DNA of 48,453 nucleotides. Origin: a virus. The notes under the pieces are model-generated. The model did no database searches and was not told the DNA's origin. It was given only the letters and a program-made list of their open reading frames with translations. The stretch lies in the IMG/VR virus record IMGVR_UViG_3300027861_000005, one strand, 5' to 3'. Position 1 is the first letter of the stretch. Each line of letters begins with the position of its first letter. The translations under genes and the position numbers were made by a program. Positions 3,311-33,811 of the stretch are shown here, one piece after another.

Positions 3311-3790
3311 TTATACGAACTTCAAAAAGGTAGCAGGATGGGTATTCGAGCTATCGCCATCAATTTGCAATTCGAAAAATTCCATGTCCACATCTGCCTG
3401 CCCGCCATTTAATGAAGCTGGCGCAGCGAATCCAACTTCAAACACAGTTTGATTACCGAGTGAAAGACTTGTCCAAGATGTAGAATAATTTTGGTAAATA
3501 TCGTCAGTTACTGTAACTGCATTTGCCGTAACCCATGTTGTACCGGCATACCGAACCCGAATATCAAAAGTAGCCTCGTCTCTGTCGTACTTCATCCTGA
3601 AATTAACAGTTAAATTTGTAACATCTGAATAAGTTTCAACGGGAGTGCTGACGCCCCAAATTTGTTCTTTGCCGTCATCACCTGAGTCCCACCATGTTTT
3701 GTTTCCGTCGCCAGCAGTAACAACATTTGCAAATCCCGAATTATTAATTATGGCATTTGTGTTACTATTTGGTATTAAGATTTCAGACAT
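3311..3790 (-). CDS. Hypothetical virion protein
   Basis: 159-aa ORF tightly packed in the structural operon. Confidence 0.6.
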   Translation of the reverse strand: MSEILIPNSNTNAIINNSGFANVVTAGDGNKTWWDSGDDGKEQIWGVSTPVETYSDVTNLTVNFRMKYDRDEATFDIRVRYAGTTWVTANAVTVTDDIYQNYSTSWTSLSLGNQTVFEVGFAAPASLNGGQADVDMEFFELQIDGDSSNTHPATFLKFV

Positions 3791-13831: not shown

Positions 13832-14242
13832 TTAGTCACTATTTGTGTAGTGGTCAAGTTTGAATAGTTGCAAGTTGTTTTTCCTCAGAAAGTCGAGCCA
13901 AAAGGGAAATCGGCACATGATGGAATGAGCGATTACCAGTTCGTCCAGGTGCTTGAACGCTCGAAACATCATACTGTGGCGATTACAGACTCTGGCGGCA
14001 GGCGCCGGCGATCCTTCGAAGAAATACGCTTTGGTCTCTGGACAGCCGCAGAAGACGCACGGACCTGCCGAGAAGGAAAGATACTCAGGCACGCTCATGT
14101 CGCATTCAGCGGCCATTTTTCGAGCGCGTGTGCAGCGATTGCAGGTATGTCTGCGGCGATCTTTCGAAATCTTCGGAAATTTTTCAATTGGAAGTTCAAA
14201 GTTGCATTCAGCGCATCTTCGCCGGTCGGTGATGTTAGGCAT
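13832..14242 (-). CDS. Cys-rich (zinc-finger-like) protein
   Basis: ATG at 14242 with GAGGAAG 7 nt upstream, overlapping the upstream stop. Contains CAEC...CNRC and CVFCGC motifs. Confidence 0.65.
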   Translation of the reverse strand: MPNITDRRRCAECNFELPIEKFPKISKDRRRHTCNRCTRARKMAAECDMSVPEYLSFSAGPCVFCGCPETKAYFFEGSPAPAARVCNRHSMMFRAFKHLDELVIAHSIMCRFPFWLDFLRKNNLQLFKLDHYTNSD

Positions 14243-14558
14243 TCTTGTCTTCCTCGGCGTAGATGGCATCCATCAGTGACAGGTAAAGTAATGTGGGCAC
14301 AGGGGTAATGCGAAACAGGAACACGCTTGTAAAACCAACTTGTATGGACCATTGAAACAGGTAATTGTCCGCGTCTTTCAACCAGTTGGCCTCATTATCT
14401 AAATGGTTAATCAATTCAAGTTCACTCATTTGCAAATTGGCACCATCTTCATGTAGTAACCATTCCACAACTTCATCTGTAAACTCGAAGCAATGACAAG
14501 CAGGCGTAGGCATTTGCACCCACGCTGCGAAGGTTCCTTTAAGATCTCTAAACATCAA
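14235..14558 (-). CDS. Hypothetical protein
   Basis: 107-aa ORF, translationally coupled on both sides. Confidence 0.6.
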   Translation of the reverse strand: MMFRDLKGTFAAWVQMPTPACHCFEFTDEVVEWLLHEDGANLQMSELELINHLDNEANWLKDADNYLFQWSIQVGFTSVFLFRITPVPTLLYLSLMDAIYAEEDKNA

Positions 14559-14827
14559 TTTTCTTCTACCTTTCTTTTTGACAGTCGTAGTTGTTCCTCT
14601 GCGTGATCTATAAGTTGCCGCTCAATCCCTAACAATACTGCGTCACAATCTTCATAATCGACGTTAGCATCGATTAATGTGTTGAATACAACAAGCATGG
14701 AAGTTAACCCAGCGCGAAAAGCAAAGTCAATCGCTTGACTTTGTTCTTTACTAAGTTCTTTATTATTATAAACCTTACTTATGTACTTATTAATCATGTT
14801 TTCAACATTTAGTATTTTATTTGTCAC
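14555..14827 (-). CDS. Hypothetical protein
   Basis: 90-aa ORF with 4-nt overlaps on both sides. Confidence 0.6.
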   Translation of the reverse strand: MTNKILNVENMINKYISKVYNNKELSKEQSQAIDFAFRAGLTSMLVVFNTLIDANVDYEDCDAVLLGIERQLIDHAEEQLRLSKRKVEEN

Positions 14828-15129
14828 TTTGCCTTTATCCTGCCTTCTTTCTTATCGCTATAGTAGTACCTTTGTGAACCTTTCACAATGGCTTCCATGT
14901 GTTCGGGATTAACGCAGTCTAGGGATTTACAGGTACTAACTAATACCTGACTCTCAAGCAATGATTTATTACCAAGATGAGTCCATGCCCAACGTCGAGC
15001 GGACCATGATTTATACTTATAATTGAATATCCCAACCTTTTTTTGTATCGCACCTGTCCAAATCCAGCAACCGGTGTTCAAGTCTTTATTAATGTATTTA
15101 CAGAACCTTATCTTTGGTGATTTAATCAT
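14824..15129 (-). CDS. HNH_3-type nuclease-like protein
   Basis: GCWIWTG near the N-terminus and CKSLDCVNPEHM near the C-terminus, the usual signature of this family. Confidence 0.6.
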   Translation of the reverse strand: MIKSPKIRFCKYINKDLNTGCWIWTGAIQKKVGIFNYKYKSWSARRWAWTHLGNKSLLESQVLVSTCKSLDCVNPEHMEAIVKGSQRYYYSDKKEGRIKAK

Positions 15130-18481: not shown

Positions 18482-18561
18482 ATTTTCGAATTCTTGAATT
18501 TCTGATTGAAAGGTGCGCATGCCTATGGGCTGAGTTACCCACAACTAAACTCTAATCCTAT

Positions 18562-18613
18562 AGAATTCTTAATCGGGGGACCGCTTACGGGCGGTCTGAG
18601 ATTGTGAATTCTT
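18562..18613 (+). repeat. Intergenic stem-loop element E1
   Basis: AGAATTCTTAATC..GACCGC-ttacgg-GCGGTC..AGATTGTGAATTCT. Confidence 0.8.
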
Positions 18614-18631
18614 ACTGAGGAAAGGGATACG

Positions 18632-18790
18632 ATGAATCAGACGGCGGAATTTTACCGGTCGCAGATCAGGATCATGCAAGCGGAAATGGGATATTGTGTT
18701 ATTCCGGAATATCGCGAACGATTGGACGATCTGCATTTTAGGGTAGCGATGCGATATTGTGCATGGCTAGGGCAAACAGGATCGGCATAG
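18632..18790 (+). CDS. Early protein, 52 aa (MNQTAEFYRSQIRIMQAEMGYCV...)
   Basis: Read directly, below the ORF-track size cutoff. GAGGAAAGGGATACG precedes the ATG. Confidence 0.55.
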   Translation: MNQTAEFYRSQIRIMQAEMGYCVIPEYRERLDDLHFRVAMRYCAWLGQTGSA

Positions 18791-18837
18791 AATGCCGAAT
18801 CAAGGATATCTGCGGATATCCGAGATTGTGAATTCTT
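18789..18837 (+). repeat. Intergenic stem-loop element E2
   Basis: AGAATGCCGAATC..GGATATC-tgcg-GATATCC..AGATTGTGAATTCTT. Confidence 0.8.
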
Positions 18838-18867
18838 ACGAAATCGAAAGAAGGGAAACAAGAAACT

Positions 18868-19134
18868 ATGGCAAGAATTGAAAAAATGTCCACACCGGGT
18901 GGCAATCCGTCACAAAATCAGACAATTCATCATGATGATGAAAAATCGGTTTTTATTAGCCATGGAACCAAAATTGCCGAAATTGCCGAAAGTAACCGCG
19001 TTACTTTGGATCGGTCTCATTGGGATTATTCTGCGACTACCGGAAAATATCGGAATAAATTTCTGAACGAAGGGATTGCCGAAACACGAAAAAAAATCGC
19101 ATCAGGGGAATACAAATTAACAAACCTGAATTGA
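18868..19134 (+). CDS. Early protein, hypothetical
   Basis: 88-aa ORF with AGAAGGGAAAC upstream. Confidence 0.7.
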   Translation: MARIEKMSTPGGNPSQNQTIHHDDEKSVFISHGTKIAEIAESNRVTLDRSHWDYSATTGKYRNKFLNEGIAETRKKIASGEYKLTNLN

Positions 19135-19146
19135 AAGGTACAGATT

Positions 19147-19323
19147 GTGGAAGAAAAAATTGACGAAATTGTGTATGGAATTGCGAATCTCAGCAAACGC
19201 GACATTGTCGCGCTACGAGATCATTGCAAAGATCGGAGTGAAGATTTTGAGAGGGATTATATTGTGCGACCGATCTACCGGAAATTTTCTCAGATTTTGG
19301 GAATAATCATCCGAACATACTAA
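19147..19323 (+). CDS. Early protein, 58 aa, GTG start
   Basis: TTGAAAGGTACAGATT-GTG. Read directly, below the ORF-track cutoff. Confidence 0.5.
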   Translation: MEEKIDEIVYGIANLSKRDIVALRDHCKDRSEDFERDYIVRPIYRKFSQILGIIIRTY

Positions 19324-19371
19324 GAATCCAGAACCATAGGCAATTGCGATTGCCTATCATTGTGAATTCTT
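19322..19371 (+). repeat. Intergenic stem-loop element E3
   Basis: AAGAATCCAGAACC-ATAGGCAAT-tgcg-ATTGCCTAT-CATTGTGAATTCTT. Confidence 0.85.
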
Positions 19372-19397
19372 GACACTAGAATTGAAAGGTACAGACT

Positions 19398-19616
19398 GTG
19401 ATTATGAAGAGCGCAGAAATATGGGCGCGATTTGTCGCGCTGAAGAAATTGGTTGAAAATGAACCGAATGCAAGCGATGATCGTGCCGATGAATTCGGCA
19501 AGGAATGGGAATTCCTCTACGATGCAGCGTGTGACGAATCAGATCATGATGGTAGTGAATTAACCGATGCACAGTATGATGAAATTTGCAAGTATGATGC
19601 GTTTTGGATCGATTGA
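19398..19616 (+). CDS. Early acidic protein
   Basis: 72 aa, strongly Asp/Glu-rich, with TTGAAAGGTACAGACT-GTG upstream. Confidence 0.65.
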   Translation: MIMKSAEIWARFVALKKLVENEPNASDDRADEFGKEWEFLYDAACDESDHDGSELTDAQYDEICKYDAFWID

Positions 19617-19628
19617 AAGGATAGAATT

Positions 19629-19904
19629 GTGGAATTATTGAAAATTGGAACGGTGGTCAAACCATCGGTAGGTGCGTTGCGCAACAAACGCGATGCAATC
19701 GGACAAGCTGGAACATACGCGAAAAAAAATCTTTGCCAAAAATGGTATGATGATGAAAAGGCAAAGCGCGGAAAAATCACAAATGTAGCAAAAAAAGAAT
19801 ATGGTTCGCATTATGTCATTGAATGGGATTCTGGATCAATTTCTTACACTGCCACATATTTGGTAGTTGACGCAAATCAGAAAGAATATGGGGATACGGA
19901 ATGA
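19629..19904 (+). CDS. Early protein, hypothetical
   Basis: 91 aa, with TTGAAAGGATAGAATT-GTG upstream. Confidence 0.65.
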   Translation: MELLKIGTVVKPSVGALRNKRDAIGQAGTYAKKNLCQKWYDDEKAKRGKITNVAKKEYGSHYVIEWDSGSISYTATYLVVDANQKEYGDTE

Positions 19905-20149
19905 AAACATACAACAATACAACAATGCCGAATATCGAAAGATTGATTGAATCTGTGTTGCACCCTATCAAAAAAGGAAAAAACAATTGGAGAAAACGAA
20001 ATATCACATTGTACGAACATCCGCGCGATATGCGAAAAGTAGTTTCGGAGGGAATATCGTTTGATGGAAAATTGAGAATAATTGCTGAAGAATCTTTGAA
20101 TGATTGGTCGAGAGAATTGTCTCAATCTGGAAATTTTGTCACAAATTGA
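19901..20149 (+). CDS. Early protein, hypothetical
   Basis: 82 aa, with an ATGA overlap onto the upstream gene. Confidence 0.65.
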   Translation: MKTYNNTTMPNIERLIESVLHPIKKGKNNWRKRNITLYEHPRDMRKVVSEGISFDGKLRIIAEESLNDWSRELSQSGNFVTN

Positions 20150-20151
20150 TT

Positions 20152-20197
20152 GAATCCGTATCCCTGCCCAATTGCGATTGGGTAGCATTGTGGATTC
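20152..20197 (+). repeat. Intergenic stem-loop element E4
   Basis: GAATCC..CCCAAT-tgcg-ATTGGG..ATTGTGGATTC. Confidence 0.75.
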
Positions 20198-20226
20198 CAT
20201 TAAACTAAGAAATTGAAAGGATAAGA

Positions 20227-20622
20227 ATGTCTGTAAATCCGTCCAACGAATTTTACAATGGCAATTTGTGTAAAATCTATTATGCTGAAATTTTACACGC
20301 CTGTGTTGATTGTGAAGCCAATCCGTTTACAATGCGAAATCTAAACGCAAATGATTATCGTGTTATCGCATTGTGCGTCAATTTGGGTATAGATTCGCAT
20401 CTTGAAGCAATTTTTAATGCGAATGAAGAAATCAGATCGGACGGAAATTGTGACCTATCGCCAGAAAATTTGTGTGTCCTGCTAAGAAGGTTGAGCGAAT
20501 ACAATTTCTCAACCGATGATGATTATGATTCGGCGCACGGATTGGTTGATAGTATTCTGACAGTCTTAGGATTTGATGATTGTGGTCGATATGTCGGTCG
20601 CGTGGCAATGGGATTGGAATAA
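20227..20622 (+). CDS. Early protein, hypothetical
   Basis: 131 aa, with TTGAAAGGATAAGA-ATG upstream. Confidence 0.7.
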   Translation: MSVNPSNEFYNGNLCKIYYAEILHACVDCEANPFTMRNLNANDYRVIALCVNLGIDSHLEAIFNANEEIRSDGNCDLSPENLCVLLRRLSEYNFSTDDDYDSAHGLVDSILTVLGFDDCGRYVGRVAMGLE

Positions 20623-20638
20623 TCCGCAAAAATGTGTC

Positions 20639-20667
20639 TTGACATAGGATTCGCAGGTTGTTACAAT
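20639..20667 (+). promoter_or_regulatory. Sigma70 consensus-like promoter, TTGACA-17 nt-TACAAT
   Basis: TTGACA at 20639-20644, a 17-nt spacer and TACAAT at 20662-20667, about 40 nt upstream of the ATG at 20708. Confidence 0.65.
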
Positions 20668-20707
20668 TGTGATAGACAAAAACAAACAAAAAAGGAAGAT
20701 TTGAATA

Positions 20708-20914
20708 ATGACTAATTGGCACCAAGCAAACGCAATCAGAACAAACTATCGAAACCGAAAAAAAGCCGCGCATATTGTCGATAATTCCCGATATGGTTTT
20801 TTTGCATTGTGTGGAGAATCTTACCCAATTGTAACGGTTAATAAAGAATACGCTGACAATCTGGAGAACGGAACCTGCAAGAAATGTTTGAAAAAACTAC
20901 AATCCGAACGATAG
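20708..20914 (+). CDS. Early protein, hypothetical
   Basis: 68 aa, with AAAGGAAGATTTGAATA-ATG upstream. Confidence 0.65.
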   Translation: MTNWHQANAIRTNYRNRKKAAHIVDNSRYGFFALCGESYPIVTVNKEYADNLENGTCKKCLKKLQSER

Positions 20915-20951
20915 AACTACGAAATAAAACAACAAACAAGAAAGGGAAAGA

Positions 20952-21299
20952 ATGACACACACATACACACAGAAAATTGCTGTACGGAATTACGTCTACG
21001 GATTAACATTTTGGGAATCCCTTGGCGAATTCGAAAGGGAATTGAGCAATCTGGATCGCGCAGAATCCCTGTGGGATGCAATTGAAAGATATTGGCCGAA
21101 TGCTGCCCGATGTTATGAGATTATCATTAGTCTGAAAACGGACATTTCAAACATCGACGAAAAAAAGTGGTTACATGAGGCATTTCGAAATGAAGTATGC
21201 CGATTGGTAACTATGAATACGGAATCGATCAAGAATTCCGGTATGCCGGAAGACATGACAATCAGGATGATGATTGACATGCTATGTCCGAAATGGTAG
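20952..21299 (+). CDS. Early protein, hypothetical
   Basis: 115 aa, with AGAAAGGGAAAGA-ATG upstream. Confidence 0.7.
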   Translation: MTHTYTQKIAVRNYVYGLTFWESLGEFERELSNLDRAESLWDAIERYWPNAARCYEIIISLKTDISNIDEKKWLHEAFRNEVCRLVTMNTESIKNSGMPEDMTIRMMIDMLCPKW

Positions 21300-21307
21300 T
21301 GTAAACT

Positions 21308-21358
21308 AAGAATCCAGAACCCGCTATATCTAAGAGATATGGCGCATTGTGAATTCTT
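21308..21358 (+). repeat. Intergenic stem-loop element E5
   Basis: AAGAATCCAGAACC-GCTATATCT-aag-AGATATGGC-GCATTGTGAATTCTT. Confidence 0.8.
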
Positions 21359-21408
21359 GAGATTGAAAGGATAGGATGATGAACAAATTAGCGACCTAAT
21401 TTGCGGAA

Positions 21409-21699
21409 TTGCTGACGGCATTGATACCGGACATTGGCGACGAATATCGGGCATCGGAAGATCCTGATGATGATACGCCGGGAATGTGTGTTACATTCGG
21501 TGCAAATACAAGAATGCCGGGTGAATCGTGGGATTGGTCATATCAGACCGGCGACAATTCATACACGGGTGGCGCGTACGGATATCCTCATTGGGGAGTT
21601 TGTTACCTTTACCGGGATTCAGACGTCAACGAATTGGCGGAATGTGCGGCAGGCGAGATTTTGGATGTCATTGCATGGGAAGGAAATGCGTACCGATGA
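21409..21699 (+). CDS. Early protein, hypothetical. The start is unresolved (see the finding on the in-frame TAA)
   Basis: 96-aa ORF. The properly positioned ATG at 21376 is in the same frame but separated from it by TAA at 21397. Confidence 0.55.
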   Translation: MLTALIPDIGDEYRASEDPDDDTPGMCVTFGANTRMPGESWDWSYQTGDNSYTGGAYGYPHWGVCYLYRDSDVNELAECAAGEILDVIAWEGNAYR

Positions 21700-21923
21700 A
21701 AATTGCACATTTTATGAACGGCGGATTCGTTCTGCATGGAATCACAGGCGATTTCAAGGGAAGGGTATCTGCATGGTATGACAAGGAAGGAAAATTGATC
21801 GATTGCGAACAATATCCTAGTATTGCCAATGTGCGATCAATCAAGCGAAACGGACCAATGTGGCAATTGTGCGAGAAACTAGGGAATCGACACAAACATA
21901 CTCCAATCACAGGAAGCAATTAA
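21696..21923 (+). CDS. Early protein, hypothetical (75 aa)
   Basis: ATGA overlap with the upstream stop. I trimmed it from ORF 21528-21923. Confidence 0.6.
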   Translation: MKIAHFMNGGFVLHGITGDFKGRVSAWYDKEGKLIDCEQYPSIANVRSIKRNGPMWQLCEKLGNRHKHTPITGSN

Positions 21924-21925
21924 GG

Positions 21926-22279
21926 ATGAAATGGCCGAAAGATCAGATTGAGATTTACAAGAATGCAGTCGCGCAGGTTATTGAATCAACAGGTAAATCG
22001 GCAGAAGAAATCAGAAAAGAGTATGCTTTCGCGCCAACAATGCGGATCATGTTTGAAATTGATCGGATTGTGTGTTACGATGCACAATATGACAACAATC
22101 ATCCTGCGTACCATGAGACAATACAAGACGGAAAAACATTTAAGGCAAGAATTCGACGATGCAAGCACAATCCTGATTTTGTGCTGTATCCAAGGGGATG
22201 CGACGACACACATAAAGCCACAATGCTACGGCATGTAGGGACTGAACTAGGTTTAATTCTAAGAAAGGGTAAGAAATGA
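21926..22279 (+). CDS. Early protein, hypothetical (117 aa)
   Basis: ATG at 21926 just after the upstream stop. I trimmed it from ORF 21860-22279. Confidence 0.6.
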   Translation: MKWPKDQIEIYKNAVAQVIESTGKSAEEIRKEYAFAPTMRIMFEIDRIVCYDAQYDNNHPAYHETIQDGKTFKARIRRCKHNPDFVLYPRGCDDTHKATMLRHVGTELGLILRKGKK

Positions 22280-23205
22280 CCAAAGCAAAGAAGAAAATGA
22301 CCAAGCGAAAGATCGGGATTGATACCCACACAAGTAAGCTGACCGTAGAGAATACGGGATTGGTGAGCAAATGCCATACTGCTTCGGGCTGGAATGTGGA
22401 AACCAATTGTGGTACAGAATTTGTGGGTGACGATTGTGTAATTATGCGAGACGACGAATATGATGGAATGAGGAAAGACGAGTTATATGAATTGTTTTGC
22501 GACTATGTGGAAGGATCGGAAATTTATCATTGTACCTATGTCGATGAATGGCACGCTTATTGGGATATGCCGGGATACATGGATCGTGGATCGATCTACT
22601 CTGGTGAAACGGAAGTCGCAGCGATTGTAGATTTGCTGGAATCCAATGAATCAGAAGAATCAAATATAGATGATTGGTGCATGGCAGCAATTGAACGATT
22701 GGTGCAGATTCACAATGATTCCGAAGATGATAATATCCGGGAAGAATGTCTTTCGGCAATTTGCTGGCATTTACCCAGCGAATCCGTAGATTTTCGTCCA
22801 GAAGTATTGTGCAACAATACAGATTTGATATATTCAGGGGATTGCAATCCGATCGATCATGACGGACGATGGATTGATACGCGGGATTGGGCAGAACATG
22901 GATATGCTTCCTGCGTAGGAATTTGTAGTTATGACAATTTGATTGACATTGAATTCGGCACAATCAACAAAACAGGAACATTGGCAGAAATGGCTACATG
23001 TTACGGGATTGATGTTGACGAGATCACAATGCACCATAAAATTGATTATGCACATTCTCAATTTGGGGCAGAGAATGGCGACAATCCAGAACGATTTACT
23101 CGCCTTGATGATTCCGGCTGGTTTCTGGATGACGGGAACGAATTGGTAGCAGAGTCGACGATTGAAGCACGATTGATCGAATTGGTGAAGGGATTGGCAG
23201 AGTAG
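22276..23205 (+). CDS. Large acidic early protein
   Basis: 309 aa, Asp/Glu/Cys-rich. ATGA overlap at its start. Ends ...LIELVKGLAE. Confidence 0.75.
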   Translation: MTKAKKKMTKRKIGIDTHTSKLTVENTGLVSKCHTASGWNVETNCGTEFVGDDCVIMRDDEYDGMRKDELYELFCDYVEGSEIYHCTYVDEWHAYWDMPGYMDRGSIYSGETEVAAIVDLLESNESEESNIDDWCMAAIERLVQIHNDSEDDNIREECLSAICWHLPSESVDFRPEVLCNNTDLIYSGDCNPIDHDGRWIDTRDWAEHGYASCVGICSYDNLIDIEFGTINKTGTLAEMATCYGIDVDEITMHHKIDYAHSQFGAENGDNPERFTRLDDSGWFLDDGNELVAESTIEARLIELVKGLAE

Positions 23206-23254
23206 AATGCTGAATCGATGGCGCGAGATCGGCGCGCCAGAGATTGTGAATTCT
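23204..23254 (+). repeat. Intergenic stem-loop element E6
   Basis: AGAATGCTGAATC..GGCGCG-agatcgg-CGCGCC..AGATTGTGAATTCT. Confidence 0.8.
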
Positions 23255-23287
23255 ATGATCTATGAGAAGATATGAAAGGCGAAACGA

Positions 23288-23461
23288 ATGACATATCGTC
23301 AGTTGATTGACCAACTGGAGAAGTTGGCAGAAGAGCAGTTAGATTGTGTTGTTACTGTTGAAGATCCTCATGAGGATGAATGTCGTGCCGCAGAACTACG
23401 AATCTGTGGTGACGGTCACGACAGCCTTACCGATAATCATCCTGTGATTTTTGTACCTTAA
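23288..23461 (+). CDS. Early protein, 57 aa (MTYRQLIDQLEKLAEEQLDCVVTVEDPHEDEC...)
   Basis: Read directly. ATGAAAGGCGAAACGA-ATG upstream. Confidence 0.55.
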   Translation: MTYRQLIDQLEKLAEEQLDCVVTVEDPHEDECRAAELRICGDGHDSLTDNHPVIFVP

Positions 23462-23559
23462 GGAAAATTCAGAATTCGGACGAAGCCCCTGCGACAACCA
23501 ATGACGAAGAAATTACAGAAGAGGAATTCATTGATTTGGTGAAGGGATTGGCATCATGA
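23437..23559 (+). pseudogene. Start-less open frame ending ...EEEFIDLVKGLAS. Either a remnant or the frameshift extension of the preceding gene
   Basis: The frame is open from 23437 with no ATG/GTG/TTG. Its stop overlaps the next ATG (ATCATGA). It shares TTGGTGAAGGGATTGGCA with the 3' end of 22276-23205. Confidence 0.35.
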
Positions 23560-23867
23560 TAATTGCTAGTGCATACACGGAGATTGTTGGCGCAGTAGAA
23601 GCATACGCTGACAATCTAGGGATTGATCCGGCTTTGATTCTGGAATGCGACGATCAGAAATGCGAAGAATCAGGTAGATGCACTGCGTGTAACATACCGT
23701 CCGAATTGATCAAGCTGTTCGTAGATAATCAGACAGAATTTGTCGACGAACTATATCAGGAATTGTATTTACTGGTGAATGGTCGGTATGTGTCTGGTGA
23801 TACGGCAAAACGGTCGCAGGCTTGCCATGAATACTCAAACGGCAGACTAGAAATGTGGGTAGGCTAA
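23556..23867 (+). CDS. Early protein, hypothetical
   Basis: 103-aa ORF. Confidence 0.65.
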   Translation: MIIASAYTEIVGAVEAYADNLGIDPALILECDDQKCEESGRCTACNIPSELIKLFVDNQTEFVDELYQELYLLVNGRYVSGDTAKRSQACHEYSNGRLEMWVG

Positions 23868-23868
23868 T

Positions 23869-23919
23869 AAAATGCTGGATCGATCCTGCGAGACCGGCGC
23901 AGGAGAGATTGTGGATTTT
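23869..23919 (+). repeat. Intergenic stem-loop element E7
   Basis: AAAATGCTGGATC..CCTGCG-agaccgg-CGCAGG..AGATTGTGGATTTT. The basal pairs covary relative to the other copies. Confidence 0.8.
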
Positions 23920-23945
23920 ACGGCAGGGTAAGAAAGGATAAGATT

Positions 23946-24137
23946 ATGATAAAATGCTTTCCGAAGTATTCATGGATGGTGCAAGTACGACCGAAACCGT
24001 TAAACTCGGAAGACTATAACGTCAAGTATGAAATCGTATTTGGTGGTCTGCCGGGGTATCATGTGGCGAAAGCAGCAGCGGACGAATTGGAATCAAATCG
24101 ATCCGATTTACAGATTTATGTTTGTCAAAACAACTAA
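23946..24137 (+). CDS. Early protein, hypothetical
   Basis: 63 aa, with AGAAAGGATAAGATT-ATG upstream. Confidence 0.6.
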   Translation: MIKCFPKYSWMVQVRPKPLNSEDYNVKYEIVFGGLPGYHVAKAAADELESNRSDLQIYVCQNN

Positions 24138-24149
24138 GAAAGGGAAAGA

Positions 24150-24356
24150 ATGAGATACCATATAATTGTAGGAAACATCGGAACAGTAGAACGAGTTAAG
24201 AGCCCTATTGTTGCTGCTAGAATTTACGGACAGTACAAAGAACTGTCCAAAGGAAAATATGGACGAGCCTCCGGCGAGTCTGTAACAATATTCGACACAC
24301 ATAAAGATTGTGTAGCTCTCGAATATGTGGGGACCAATGAAAGGGATGCAGAATGA
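24150..24356 (+). CDS. Early protein, hypothetical
   Basis: 68 aa, with AGAAAGGGAAAGA-ATG upstream. Confidence 0.65.
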   Translation: MRYHIIVGNIGTVERVKSPIVAARIYGQYKELSKGKYGRASGESVTIFDTHKDCVALEYVGTNERDAE

Positions 24357-24619
24357 CAATCACAGACAGAATCAACCAGGCTGCAAGTGGGGAACATCTT
24401 GACGGCGTCATGATCTACTGGGATACCGCTGCCGTTGGAGATGAGGGTACAGCGTATCGAGATGGCGAGGAATCAGGGGCATTGGAGTTCACTGGCTGGG
24501 GTGGCGAGGCGGACGGCAGTGAAGACGACACTTACCACGTGAGCAACTACTTCGGCGCGGATGGCAAGTACCTCGGGCCAGATAAACATGGCGTGTACCC
24601 ACAGTTTCAAACCATTTAA
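24353..24619 (+). CDS. Early acidic protein
   Basis: 88 aa, with an ATGA overlap. Confidence 0.65.
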   Translation: MTITDRINQAASGEHLDGVMIYWDTAAVGDEGTAYRDGEESGALEFTGWGGEADGSEDDTYHVSNYFGADGKYLGPDKHGVYPQFQTI

Positions 24620-24631
24620 CTAAGGACAGCA

Positions 24632-24889
24632 ATGATTTCTGAATCCTACGCTGTGACTCCGTATGGTTTCCGGCAGGGGAATCGTCGTGTGATCGTCAAC
24701 GCCGCCGCACAATGGACGTCAGACGGTCAGACGAGACTGATACAGGCAGTGGAAAACCTTGACGAATTCTCATGGATCGGCAGGACATTTGCCAGACCGA
24801 CAAATCCGGCAGACGCAGAGTATTGGGATAGTATTTTTTGGATGCTCGTCGAATCAGGCGGGATGGAACAAAGGACCATTGAAAGGTAA
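24632..24889 (+). CDS. Early protein, hypothetical
   Basis: 85 aa, with AAGGACAGCA-ATG upstream. Confidence 0.65.
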   Translation: MISESYAVTPYGFRQGNRRVIVNAAAQWTSDGQTRLIQAVENLDEFSWIGRTFARPTNPADAEYWDSIFWMLVESGGMEQRTIER

Positions 24890-24900
24890 AGAATAAGAAA

Positions 24901-25002
24901 ATGACCGACAAGACAACACATTTATTTTGTGCAGCATTGACCTGTTCACTTGTCCTCATTCTGTGGGCATCGTTTCAATTACTGACAATAACGTTTGAAT
25001 GA
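24901..25002 (+). CDS. 33-aa single-TM peptide (MTDKTTHLFCAALTCSLVLILWASFQLLTITFE)
   Basis: Read directly. Its stop overlaps the next ATG (GAATGA). Confidence 0.4.
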   Translation: MTDKTTHLFCAALTCSLVLILWASFQLLTITFE

Positions 25003-25760
25003 AAGCACTGAGAATGAAAATTAAAATTAAAGAAAATGCAATGGCTAAGTATTGGAATCCAAAATGCCAAGGACAATATATTCCTACCAAGGAAGAAAGA
25101 ACTCATGCCGATAAGCTGGAAGCCATTCAAGGGATGACGATAGAAGTCAAGACAGATTTTTTGTTCTGCGACCAATACAACACCAAGCCAATAGAAGGAG
25201 TGAGCGACCAAGGTATGCGGATCATGGAAGCCTCTGTGTCGGAAGTGATTGACGATATTCGGGATACGGTAGGCAAATGTCCTTATTGTGGACACCATAC
25301 GCCCGGTAAAATCGACGGCTTCTGTGAGTCTTGTCTGGATTCCTCTTATCTTGACGAGCAAACTATAAAACGCGGTGGTACTCGCATTCGACCAGTGGAC
25401 GCCAAGCAAAACCGGGAAAAATGGGAAGAATTAACGCAGGAAGAATGGGACATGCTGAAACCTCAGTATGTCAAGCGACAGACCACAGGCAAAGACAGCC
25501 GGAATGCTGAGAAGCTGAGAAAGCAGCGGGCAAGGTTGCATTCTGACCATAAAGCCAAAACAGAAGCACTTGACATTGAACGGGACGGTATGATTTGGTT
25601 GATGGACAACAACATCAGCGTTGAAAACTGCATCTATTACAGTCACCGAAAGGTATTTTGTTTTGGATGGCGCAACAAGATTAGCAAGGGAGTTAAGAAA
25701 GTACTAGACACCAAATTGCAAGGTTTTCCATTCCAGACAGATTTTAAGGTTGAAAGGTAG
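24999..25760 (+). CDS. Hypothetical protein with a zinc ribbon (CPYCGH...CESC)
   Basis: 253-aa ORF. Confidence 0.7.
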   Translation: MKALRMKIKIKENAMAKYWNPKCQGQYIPTKEERTHADKLEAIQGMTIEVKTDFLFCDQYNTKPIEGVSDQGMRIMEASVSEVIDDIRDTVGKCPYCGHHTPGKIDGFCESCLDSSYLDEQTIKRGGTRIRPVDAKQNREKWEELTQEEWDMLKPQYVKRQTTGKDSRNAEKLRKQRARLHSDHKAKTEALDIERDGMIWLMDNNISVENCIYYSHRKVFCFGWRNKISKGVKKVLDTKLQGFPFQTDFKVER

Positions 25761-31084: not shown

Positions 31085-31230
31085 TCATAACAGATTCTGT
31101 GGGCTAGACAAAAGAGTTTGGCAAAAAATATCAGAATACCCCTGTTTGACCCTAGAATACAGTTGACAGTGCCGACGATACCTTTAGACTGGGGCAATTA
31201 CTTCCAACTTGTGTTTTAAGGGGACACAAC

Positions 31231-31713
31231 ATGACCGGCACATTTCCAACAGCACCGACACCGCTCGCACCAACAGCAGCACCAACAGCCACACCAACTG
31301 AGAATATCGATTTGGTGATAGGCGAATGGTTTGCGGCATCCGAAGCACTCGCAGCAGCAAAGAAGACCGAAAAGGCTCTACGCGATCAGGTGAGCAATTC
31401 GCATTTGTGGAACGCTGCAAAAACAACCGGCACGCAAACCTATGACCTTGGCAAAGGTTATGAATTGAAGATGGCTCGCACTGAGACAGTGTCAGTCGCC
31501 AACAAAGAACATGAGGCAACTCATTGTATTATCAAGCTGCGCAACCTTGGCGAAGGGGCTACCGAACGAGCCAATCGATTGTTTACATTCTCTGCTAGAA
31601 TGAGTGAAGCGGTTTATAAGGAGTTAACCGCCGAAGAACGAATGATTGTCGATCCAATTATCACCCGTAAGCCGGGTAGCACCAGTATTAAACTCAAAGC
31701 ACCAAAGGAGTGA
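31231..31713 (+). CDS. Hypothetical protein, first gene of the recombination module
   Basis: 160 aa, with a Pro/Thr/Ala-rich N-terminus. Confidence 0.7.
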
Positions 31714-31715
31714 GT

Positions 31716-31898
31716 ATGCTAGTTTTGTCACGAAAGATTAACCAAAAAATTATAATTAACGATGACATTGTCGTTACAATAGTAAATATAAAAGGCGATC
31801 AAGTGAAACTTGGCATCAAAGCACCAAGTGACATTACTGTATATCGCGAAGAAGTTTATAAAGCGATCTTAAAGGAAATGGAGGACATAAATAAATGA
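31716..31898 (+). CDS. csrA: CsrA-family RNA-binding translational regulator
   Basis: [51 protein letters not shown] aligns along its whole length with E. coli CsrA [57 protein letters not shown] lies 5 nt upstream. Confidence 0.85.
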
Positions 31899-32566
31899 GT
31901 TTACAATTGCTAAGCACAAATACAGTTACGCCTGTTAGTCATTGCTTGATATACGGTCCAGCTAAGTCAGGCAAAACACGATTGATCCCCACAGCACCTC
32001 AACCGGTGATTTGCTCGTCTGACGCAGGGTTGGCTTCCATACGTGAACATAATCTACCTTTCCACGAAGTTCAAACGTACAGCGATTACCTTGTTTTCGA
32101 ACAAGCGGCAACAAAAGGCGAACTTAACGGGTTTGAAACGGTAGCTATTGACGATCTAACTGAGATTGCCTATTTGTTCATTCAGGAAGAAAGACCGAAG
32201 CACAAGAATTTGATGCAGGCTTATGGTGCATTGAATGATGAAATGATGCGAGTTATTCGCTTTTGGCGAAATCAATCGGCGTTTACCGCTGTTATCATCT
32301 GTAAACAAGAAAGGATAAAAGATGAATCCACCGGAGGATTAATTTATGCCCCCATGATTCCGGGTAAAGCGGTCGCGCCGCAGTTACCTTATTTGTTTGG
32401 ATCTGTGTATCATACTGAGGAATGGACCGATCCGACTACGCAAGCAGTGCATGAAGTTGTGCGGTGTAAACGAAATGCACAGTATGACGCAGGTGATCGT
32501 TCGGGAAAACTGAACGAAATTGAGTTTGCGAATCTCAAGGACATTTTTGCCAAAGTGCTGTCATGA
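31895..32566 (+). CDS. Sak4-like RecA-family ssDNA-annealing ATPase (AAA_24)
   Basis: Walker A GPAKSGKT and Walker B VAIDDL. 223 aa, followed by a DUF669-type SSB as in known Sak4 modules. Confidence 0.75.
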
Positions 32567-32775
32567 GTAAAAATGTGCATCAAAAGCTTTTCAATTGGTC
32601 ATATCGCGCAGGGGATGAAAATGATCTCAAGTGTAATGTCTGCGAAGATAAAATGTTGATTGATTGTCCGAATTGTGATGGCACAAGTCTAATAAACATT
32701 GGTGGCGGTGAAAAGGATCATTGCCCTTGTTGCGAAAACATAAAGGGTAAGGTTCTTTGCCCGGAATGTAACTAA
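32563..32775 (+). CDS. DnaJ-type CxxCxG zinc-finger mini-protein
   Basis: CNVCED...CPNCDG...CPCCEN...CPEC. Confidence 0.65.
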   Translation: MSKNVHQKLFNWSYRAGDENDLKCNVCEDKMLIDCPNCDGTSLINIGGGEKDHCPCCENIKGKVLCPECN

Positions 32776-32795: not shown

Positions 32796-33515
32796 ATGGT
32801 TCTGAATTTACCTGAAGCATTCGATCCGTCGCAAACAGCACCGTCAACCGGCAGCGCCGGTCAACTACCTGTGTCCGATGCGAAAGGTCATGTGGTTGTT
32901 ATTGTCAGCGGTGAAATGGTGCCAACCGCCGGTGGAAGTGGCACATTCTTGGCATTGACCTTGCGGGTTGTAGAAGGTGTGGCAACGGGCGCCGAAGGTG
33001 TGCATCGTCTAAATCTGCACAACCAATCGGCAGATGCTGTCAGAATTGCTTACTCTGAACTATCGGCAATCTGCCACGTTGTTGGCTGGTTGCAGCCATT
33101 GCAGGACGTGGAAGTGTTGTATAACAAACCCTTCCGTGTTGTGGTCGGAACACAAAAAGGCAAGGAAGCGGAAGGATACACAAGCGTTAAGAAAATCATG
33201 GATGTTCACGGAGCTAAGCCGGGCGAGCGGGCGGCAGGTGCAGCCACGGTTGCAGCACCAGCACCAGCACCAGCACCAGCACCAGCACCAGCACCAGCAC
33301 CAGCACCGGTTGCAGCACCGGTTGCAGGCGGATTTCCTGTGCAACCACCCGTGCCACCACCTGCTGCCGCTCCAGCAGTCGCTGCTGATCCTGTAGCGAT
33401 GCCTGTTGTTGAGAACGTGCCTTTTGCCGCACCTGTGGCACCAGCACCCGTAGCGGCACCTGTTGCACCGACTGCACCTGCGAACCCTGCCGCCGCGCCA
33501 TGGGCACAAGGCTAA
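32796..33515 (+). CDS. DUF669-like phage ssDNA-binding protein with an Ala/Pro-rich tail
   Basis: N-terminus MVLNLPEAFDPSQ...G.LPV.DAKGHVVVI is typical of DUF669 and it is adjacent to Sak4. The C-terminal (AP)n tail is low-complexity. Confidence 0.65.
   Translation: MVLNLPEAFDPSQTAPSTGSAGQLPVSDAKGHVVVIVSGEMVPTAGGSGTFLALTLRVVEGVATGAEGVHRLNLHNQSADAVRIAYSELSAICHVVGWLQPLQDVEVLYNKPFRVVVGTQKGKEAEGYTSVKKIMDVHGAKPGERAAGAATVAAPAPAPAPAPAPAPAPAPVAAPVAGGFPVQPPVPPPAAAPAVAADPVAMPVVENVPFAAPVAPAPVAAPVAPTAPANPAAAPWAQG
33255..33302. repeat. (GCACCA)8 in-frame hexanucleotide repeat encoding (AP)8
   Basis: Counted directly. It generates spurious ORFs in other frames and on the opposite strand. Confidence 0.95.
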
Positions 33516-33583
33516 TCGATCCCTTGTCGGGGTGACCGGCTAACGATGGTGCCCCCTTACATTATTGTTAGTCGGTCATTTTT

Positions 33584-33811
33584 ATGCTTAACGACAACGA
33601 CTTCGATTGTCCCATTTGTCTCAACGTAGGTGAGTTGCATTGTCAAAATTGTTTAGGGGACGGTTGCGACAAATGCACGCAAGGGTATGTGATGTGCCCT
33701 GCTTGCCTTGGCTTTTCCAGATTAAGAATCGACTGCAATGACACCCAGTCATCAAGTAGTGAACTCAGATTGCAGGACATTCTTGAGCGGACCTTTCTGC
33801 CCGACTTTTGA
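33584..33811 (+). CDS. Second CxxC zinc-finger mini-protein
   Basis: CPICLN...CQNCLGDGCDKC...CPAC. Its 3' end overlaps the methyltransferase ORF by 74 nt. Confidence 0.55.
   Translation: MLNDNDFDCPICLNVGELHCQNCLGDGCDKCTQGYVMCPACLGFSRLRIDCNDTQSSSSELRLQDILERTFLPDF

Follow-up and report, generated by a model that had tools for sequence, protein, structure and literature searches.

In the virus genome IMGVR_UViG_3300027861_000005 of the IMG/VR database, a stretch of 48,453 nucleotides (nt) that is referred to below as the window, the open reading frame (ORF) at 31716-31898 on the plus strand encodes a protein of 60 amino acids (aa) that is a member of the CsrA family at the levels of sequence, residues, and predicted fold. 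CsrA controls hundreds of bacterial mRNAs, and a viral copy would offer a compact route to rewire host translation, possibly including the expression of motility, biofilm, and CRISPR-Cas genes. Taken as a whole, the observations are best explained by a CsrA/RsmA-family protein that is encoded by the phage, is functional, and is directed mainly at host mRNAs, a reading to which we assign a probability of about 0.72. Phage csrA genes are already established; the find opens no new category and is a fairly ordinary one.

The Pfam profile PF02599, which a sequence-only reading of this DNA had proposed as a check on its assignment, matches the protein with 87 bits (cut-off 27; E 8.3e-25) over profile positions 1-51 of 53. 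Two NCBIfam equivalog models are passed as well, namely NF002469 with a score of 84.3 (threshold 73) and TIGR00202 with 80.8 (threshold 70.1). Furthermore, PHROG 9500 ("CsrA-like regulator") is matched at E 5.7e-23 over positions 1-56 of 65, and the sequences of CsrA, RsmA, and RsmE chains in the PDB match the phage protein at E 7e-15 to 7e-13. The gene is virus-encoded in the sense of PHROG 9500, as the window also holds genes for terminase, portal, major head protein, tape measure, primase, and DNA polymerase.

In an alignment of 47 sequences, M1, L2, L4, R6, A36, P37, R44, and E46 are invariant, and all of them are present in the phage CsrA, which additionally has K7, V42, and V47. Both halves of the RNA-binding surface are kept, with L2, L4, R6, and K7 on strand 1 and V42, R44, E46, and V47 at the junction of strand 5 and the helix. 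Apart from R44, the importance of the residues on this surface is known from alanine-scanning work on E. coli CsrA. R44 itself is essential (PMC7366521). In B. subtilis, hag repression is reportedly best predicted by the five residues K7, S11, I25, E45, and L47 (PMC13443453), of which the phage protein keeps K7, I25, and E45 if the numbering is assumed to be equivalent.

The predicted structure points to the same family. An AlphaFold2 (AF2) model of the monomer has a predicted local distance difference test score (pLDDT) of 92.9, and the top 15 matches of a Foldseek search against the PDB are all CsrA, RsmA, or RsmE chains. The top ten have template modeling (TM) scores of 0.80-0.86 and root-mean-square deviations (rmsd) of 0.7-1.2 Å; for the top 12 these ranges are 0.73-0.86 and 0.7-1.9 Å. 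On the AF2 model and its Foldseek matches, the fold is predicted to consist of five strands and a C-terminal helix. DSSP marks only three strands in the monomer model, since the pairing of strands 1 and 5 takes place across the dimer. The end-to-end CsrA homologue of 60 aa that had been read from the letters is thus borne out by profiles, residues, and predicted structure.

The gene and its translation signal lie at the following positions:

31716-31898 including the stop codon, plus strand: csrA, encoding a 60-aa CsrA-family protein (Pfam, NCBIfam, PHROG, and PDB matches; AF2 model).
31705-31710, plus strand: Shine-Dalgarno sequence AAGGAG of csrA, read from the sequence, 5 nt before the ATG.

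The ORF runs from the ATG at 31716-31718 to the TGA at 31896-31898 and comprises 60 codons. An in-frame GTG at 31710 would lengthen the product by two residues (62 aa); the ATG at 31716 was taken as the start because all homologues begin with MLVL or MLIL and because the spacing of the Shine-Dalgarno sequence fits this codon. The AAGGAG overlaps the final two sense codons of the preceding gene, which encodes a DUF7173 protein and ends with a TGA at 31711-31713, leaving a gap of 2 nt to the csrA start. At the other end, the csrA stop and the start of a Sak4-like gene share the ATGA at 31895-31898 (Sak4 ATG at 31895-31897). The sequence-only reading had described a Shine-Dalgarno sequence of its own, a start adjoining the stop of 31231-31713, a stop overlapping the Sak4 start, and a place inside a recombination module; all four descriptions are confirmed, the last by the DUF7173/phrog_2480 gene upstream and the AAA_24/phrog_124 Sak4-like gene downstream. 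No ORF of at least 40 aa on the opposite strand overlaps csrA. The "middle-phase expression" that had been proposed is deduced from gene order and is not visible in the sequence.

It was observed that csrA is a lineage-specific accessory insertion, exactly fitted at an otherwise conserved DUF7173/Sak4 junction, since relatives keep the order DUF7173-Sak4 without csrA. Two IMG/VR relatives, L005 and L006, have DUF7173 followed by Sak4 with gaps of 105 and 230 nt and no csrA, their Sak4 proteins being 74% and 57% identical to that of the window, respectively. Escherichia phage Halfdan (Lokivirus) and Stenotrophomonas phage DLP1 (Septimatrevirus) likewise have DUF7173, then a Sak4/RecA-like gene and DUF669, without csrA. 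Over these four genomes the spacing between DUF7173 and Sak4 is 52-230 nt. Upstream, Halfdan and DLP1 have the order primase, small ORF (a transcriptional regulator by its DLP1 annotation), MazG, and DUF7173. The MazG pyrophosphohydrolase gene, which in these two phages lies between the divergent promoter region and DUF7173, is absent at 31085-31230 of the window, and the operon here therefore starts directly with DUF7173.

The csrA DNA is identical at every base in 4/4 other readable metagenome contigs, with the same neighbors in each; a database look-up found the identical CsrA protein on eight contigs, and one database contig with the same gene measures 48,469 nt. Among GenBank phages there is no near DNA match to the genome, and a tblastn search with the phage CsrA matched 14 records, the best at 55% identity, with no close relative. 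The closest CsrA outside its own lineage (P0003) is 71% identical and also short-ended; its locus, with NDK, RNase T-like, and dUTPase genes as neighbors, looks viral. One variant was seen in ENA contig ERZ4231631 (2444 nt), whose positions 1-200 compare with 31540-31735 of the window: it is identical from csrA codon 7 on and unrelated upstream, such that the variant protein begins with MKLIIK and not with MLVLSR. Either the contig is a chimera assembled at low coverage, or recombination has occurred within csrA at this point.

That related phages do without csrA, and that the recovered copies are all identical and leave selection unmeasurable, is compatible with a functionless passenger, i.e., a gene that was recently captured or is decaying. 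Such a passenger is nonetheless highly improbable in view of a full-length core with every invariant residue kept, a strong Shine-Dalgarno sequence, an exact fit between the neighbors (2-nt gap, 4-nt overlap), scores above the equivalog thresholds, and the many similar short genes that exist in viruses. Moreover, identity to the nearest cellular sequence reaches only 69%, which speaks against a fresh capture.

The surroundings and architecture of the phage protein were compared with those of cellular and viral relatives. N55 of CsrA is needed for binding of the antagonist FliW and is invariant where both genes occur (10.1101/2020.07.02.184341), and the FliW-binding surface is CsrA's C-terminal extension (PMC7366521). 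The cellular set consists of the 80 nearest CsrA loci in 185,579 species genomes (44-69% identical, 3-kb flanks). At least 494 IMG/VR stretches encode CsrA relatives according to a pattern scan, and the best 80 of these form the viral set, in which fliW was sought within 4 kb:

Cellular set (80 loci): fliW nearby in 74/80, mostly adjacent; N55 in 77/80; length 72-103 aa.
Viral set (80 loci): fliW nearby in 0/80; N55 in 5/80; length of 68 aa or less in 60/80.
Phage protein: no fliW in the window; M55; length 60 aa.

The apparent loss of FliW features in viral loci, like the proximity to Sak4 that is described below, comes from quick analyses of best-scoring loci with no formal baseline. The phage CsrA has M55 instead of N55 and only 5 residues after position 55, where N55-bearing homologues have 11-44; N55 was also found in 76/85 relatives from a protein-database search. 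None of the marks of a FliW-partnered CsrA, i.e., N55, a C-terminal extension, and a fliW gene in the window, is present in the phage protein. The nearest cellular loci belong to Brachyspira and other spirochaetes, Lachnospiraceae, Paenibacillus, Eremiobacterota, and others, and three of them were confirmed to have the order flgK-flgL-fliW-csrA. Because the nearest cellular CsrAs span many phyla and are at most 69% identical, no donor or host can be named from them. CsrA, RsmA, and RsmE of the gammaproteobacterial type lie farther away (39-50% identity).

The phage itself carries no fliW and no known sponge RNA, in agreement with the earlier remark that no FliW-like or small RNA (sRNA) antagonist is nearby. 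A search of the six-frame translation of the window with a hidden Markov model (HMM) of three FliW proteins reached E 0.2 at best and thus gave no fliW, and a permissive Rfam search (E ≤ 1) of the whole window gave no match and no RNA resembling CsrB, CsrC, RsmX, RsmY, or RsmZ. A sponge RNA would usually come from the host genome. These results bear on the idea that the protein is a decoy, which would titrate the antagonists of the host CsrA (sRNAs of the CsrB/RsmZ type or FliW) and thereby free the host's own regulator. Sponge RNAs are rich in GGA and would likewise be bound by an intact RNA-binding surface, and a phage that has neither a sponge RNA nor FliW of its own would suit such a role. 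A decoy for FliW is unlikely given that the phage protein has M in place of N55 and no C-terminal extension, while titration of sponge RNAs could not be separated in its outcome from simply added CsrA activity. Overall, the decoy is considered very unlikely.

As to descent, nearest neighbors are viral for 81/82 viral sequences and cellular for 77/80 cellular ones, and a neighbor-joining tree places the phage CsrA in a clade of 81 viral sequences and one 5.6-kb contig of a metagenome-assembled genome (MAG). This placement in the viral clade is weakly supported: a robust one was considered and rejected, as the tree favors it but column resampling supports it only weakly. The contig in question, from a Planctomycetaceae MAG, holds the only "cellular" CsrA of the clade, lacks N55 and a nearby fliW, and may be a viral contig that was binned into the MAG. 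Bacillus phage Dartukuta encodes at 3501-3674 a 57-aa CsrA (MLILTRRIGETLMVGD...) that clusters with gammaproteobacterial CsrA/RsmA and not with the FliW type of Bacillus. One might go further and propose that the phage CsrA belongs to a large lineage of short CsrAs of FliW-type descent that is maintained in viruses and would have lost the FliW-binding Asn and the tail, would be blind to the host antagonist, and would sit repeatedly in operons with Sak4 and single-stranded DNA-binding protein (SSB) genes. We regard this proposal as unlikely. If it were true and the host used the flagellin-FliW-CsrA checkpoint, the phage would override this checkpoint during infection; alternatively, CsrA of such a lineage may directly tune the translation of the adjoining recombination module.

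For a functional CsrA that acts mainly on host mRNAs, the following mechanism can be proposed. The phage protein would form a domain-swapped dimer like other CsrA proteins, and the dimer would bind GGA in single-stranded or loop regions near ribosome-binding sites, thereby blocking or altering translation and mRNA stability. It would be co-produced with recombination and replication proteins from a promoter near 31163-31190, with amounts tied to one another, and termination/re-initiation coupling may operate at both csrA gene junctions. The main targets would be host mRNAs, on which the phage would impose CsrA activity beyond the control of host FliW. The cell would thus be pushed toward a state that favors the phage, possibly through repression of flagellin, biofilm, storage, stress, and defense (CRISPR-Cas) genes. 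A precedent for host-directed action is Bci of a Pseudomonas prophage, which affects infectivity, quorum sensing, motility, and biofilm (PMC7546807). Furthermore, RsmA represses CRISPR-Cas in Serratia, and phage homologues have been proposed as anti-defense factors (PMC8450108). The occurrence of relatives in at least 494 IMG/VR stretches argues that this class of gene is maintained in viruses.

The putative transcription unit to which csrA belongs is made up of these features:

31163-31190, plus strand: sigma-70-like promoter candidate (TTGACA, 16 nt, TAGACT) in the intergenic stretch between divergent genes ahead of the operon (consensus scan, 10/12 matches).
31231-31713, plus strand: first operon gene, encoding the 160-aa DUF7173 protein (Pfam PF23791, E 5e-27; phrog_2480).
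31895-32566, plus strand: Sak4-like single-stranded DNA-annealing ATPase (Pfam AAA_24, E 4e-16; phrog_124, E 1.4e-35).
32563-32775, plus strand: CxxC zinc-ribbon ORF of 70 aa, whose start overlaps the Sak4 stop (ORF list; no family match).
32796-33515, plus strand: DUF669-type SSB with an Ala/Pro-rich C-terminal half (Pfam DUF669; phrog_6015, E 9e-38).
33532-33579, plus strand: terminator-like hairpin with a 20-pair stem and a T run behind it, at which the five-gene transcription unit may end (consensus scan).

The promoter-like sequence at 31163-31190 and the terminator-like sequence at 33532-33579 bracket five genes on the same strand.

Several points weigh against a host-directed CsrA of this kind. 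The relatives of the phage infect Proteobacteria, and many such hosts use sRNA sponges instead of FliW; in a sponge-type host a short CsrA without N55 is the normal architecture, and being "FliW-blind" would be of no consequence. The phage CsrA shares a mean identity of 0.56 with viral sequences and of 0.57 with cellular ones, and in column resampling its ten nearest sequences were mostly viral in only 21/50 replicates. Purifying selection on csrA is unmeasurable because the recovered copies are identical in DNA. Finally, matches to the promoter and terminator consensus are no commoner in this region than in shuffles, which makes both elements candidates only.

Another explanation is that the phage CsrA represses translation of phage messages in a temporal manner, acting like RegA of T4 at ribosome-binding sites that contain GGA, either that of Sak4 or those of early genes, whose expression it would shut off or balance. 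The feature that speaks most directly to this possibility is the following:

31874-31885, plus strand: three GGA motifs (AAGGAAAUGGAGGA) in the 3' end of csrA, including the GGAGGA Shine-Dalgarno sequence of Sak4, 9 nt before its ATG (read from the sequence).

Initiation regions with three GGA motifs within 12 nt are rare: the 79 predicted gene starts include only two or three, that of Sak4 among them. Three-GGA clusters number 34 genome-wide and mostly lie inside genes. At the Sak4 start, 6 nt separate the two ANGGA motifs. One CsrA dimer bridges sites that are at least about 10 nt apart, a span that this pair does not reach. GGA belongs to any strong Shine-Dalgarno sequence and is hence unspecific. 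Moreover, the local folds of csrA, Sak4, and the operon leaders are no more stable than those of shuffles, and there is no stable hairpin that presents the GGA motifs at the Sak4 start. The segment 31874-31885 is a possible but weak candidate for a CsrA site.

Across the genome, ACANGGA is not enriched (27 found versus 24.9 expected), and CANGGANG shows a mild, marginal enrichment (28 found versus 19.3 expected), which speaks against regulation of the phage's own messages. The TTGAAAGG box was found 11 times versus 2.7 expected, with copies at 18506-25757 (+), 37168 (+), 16979 (-), and 6145 (-). Almost every copy is followed by a start codon after about 5-12 nt, and the box continues as GGT in 8/11 and as GGA, the obligatory CsrA core, in just 3/11. 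The sequence-only reading had linked this box to CsrA, a link that is not supported: the box was rejected as a CsrA operator, since its position a few bases before start codons identifies it as extended Shine-Dalgarno context of early genes, mostly with GGT, and since CsrA motifs are not clearly enriched. In the same early region, a near-palindromic element, TTGTGAATTCTT, occurs on the plus strand at 18602, 18826, 19360, and 21347 exactly and at 23244 with one mismatch. Where both elements occur (19360 and 21347), it lies just upstream of the TTGAAAGG box, and it resembles a promoter or operator element of the early genes.

The company that csrA keeps in other viruses was examined as well. A Sak4-like ATPase gene lies on the same strand within 4 kb in 14/80 viral csrA loci, downstream of csrA in 8 and upstream in 6, several of them within 4-500 nt. 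The Sak4 proteins of these 14 loci are diverged (19-54% identity where alignable, one identical triplet aside). In IMG/VR locus L007, for example, the order is CsrA, RusA, Sak4, and SSB, and its Sak4 is remotely related to that of the window. The association of csrA with Sak4 looks enriched, given that Sak4 of the window type is matched in just 378/50,697 GenBank phage records by tblastn. Furthermore, in phi297 and Bacillus phage Dartukuta, RecT and an exonuclease gene are found 1-2.5 kb downstream of csrA. This recurrent proximity would suit a repressor of recombination genes. The adjacency to Sak4 may, however, only mirror a common home in early operons, where genes for host interaction abound. 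This is the simplest reading of csrA near recombination genes in general, although a functional link is possible, and related phages run the same module without csrA. All told, a temporal repressor in the manner of RegA is judged unlikely, and CsrA action on phage messages is possible but unsupported. Both this action and host reprogramming, which the sequence-only reading had raised side by side, are hypotheses, with the host-directed CsrA being the reading we prefer.

The window is probably a complete tailed-phage genome. The minus strand holds genes for the small and large terminase, portal, scaffold, major head protein, adaptor, tape measure, and tail proteins, and a block of small early genes is found on the plus strand. 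In the replication/recombination region, a primase-helicase gene and a 90-aa ORF lie on the minus strand, and the plus strand has the order DUF7173, csrA, Sak4, zinc-ribbon ORF, DUF669 SSB, and second zinc-ribbon ORF, followed by genes for a DNA methyltransferase, a Cas4-domain exonuclease, a helicase, and a DNA polymerase. The C-terminal half of the SSB (32796-33515) includes an (AP)n run where relatives have Gln/Pro-rich tails instead. The SSB gene is flanked by the two small CxxC zinc-ribbon ORFs at 32563-32775 (+) and 33584-33811 (+), neither of which matches a family; the second (33584-33811) has a homologue in the IMG/VR relative L005. Two HNH-endonuclease-like ORFs, at 14824-15129 (-) and 13832-14269 (-), lie upstream of the terminase genes. 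Neither an integrase nor a repressor was found in the scanned ORFs, where many small early ORFs are without a family match. PADLOC defense models gave no match in the window, which also holds no tRNAs. Judged by terminase, primase, and DUF7173, the nearest named phages are siphoviruses of Proteobacteria with identities of 30-62%, namely Septimatrevirus, Lokivirus, Burkholderia KL1, Pseudomonas Ab26, and Paracoccus and Xanthomonas phages.

Phage homologues of RsmA/CsrA have been surveyed by Campa et al. 2021 (PMC8450108) and Sobrero and Valverde 2020 (PMC7366521) and are also treated in PMC10269572; the list of Campa et al. includes Serratia phage Parlo, Erwinia Pavtok, Burkholderia DC1, Ralstonia GP4, and Klebsiella LASTA (PMC8450108). 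To these, the window adds a well-defined case in the form of a clean insertion of csrA into the conserved replication/recombination module of a siphovirus, and it points to two testable patterns in viral CsrAs, a systematic lack of FliW-binding determinants and a frequent proximity to Sak4. Like the catalogued phage CsrAs of PHROG 9500, the protein described here is a small CsrA-fold protein of a tailed phage whose function is assigned by homology only, and the same hypotheses of host reprogramming and anti-defense apply to it. Unlike them, it is inserted at a DUF7173/Sak4 junction in a siphovirus that is related to Septimatrevirus and Lokivirus and in which no lysogeny genes were found.

Bci ("bacteriophage control infection"; Pseudomonas prophage AUS531phi and the phi297 group, phrog_5527) is the only phage CsrA-domain protein with experimental data in the literature searched (PMC7546807). 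It resembles the protein of the window in its CsrA domain (residues 1-51) and in its location in an early operon upstream of recombination genes. It differs in its size of 123 aa with a long C-terminal extension and in its occurrence in temperate phages, and the identity amounts to 45-47% over 51 residues. RegA of T4 is likewise a small phage protein, and both are proposed to bind ribosome-binding regions of mRNAs. This is a functional analogy only, as there is no homology (Pfam gives only CsrA) and the early-gene box is mostly without the CsrA core.

Among cellular proteins, the FliW-partnered CsrAs of Bacillus, Geobacillus, Brachyspira, Campylobacter, and others (PDB 5DMB and 1T3O) are nearest, with 44-69% identity and a shared APxD motif; chain D of 5DMB superimposes on the model of the phage CsrA with a TM score of 0.86. 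They have 72-103 aa, N55, the extension, and an adjoining fliW, whereas the phage protein has M55 and 60 aa. The sRNA-antagonized CsrA, RsmA, and RsmE of Gammaproteobacteria (PDB 1Y00, 1VPZ, 2JPP, and 7YR6) share with it the length of ~60 aa, the lack of N55, the fold, and the RNA-binding residues. They are set apart by an identity to the phage CsrA of only 39-50%, and no sponge RNA was detected in the phage. Finally, CsrA/Rsm paralogues on plasmids and on integrative conjugative elements (ICEs), such as those of Sinorhizobium pMBA19a, Legionella ICEs, and Pseudomonas plasmids (PMC8450108, PMC7366521), are further instances of a mobile element with its own regulator. These copies presumably adjust host physiology or the element's own genes, as is proposed for the phage copy, and they differ by description from the latter in that the elements are conjugative and not viral and in that their sequence subfamilies are different.

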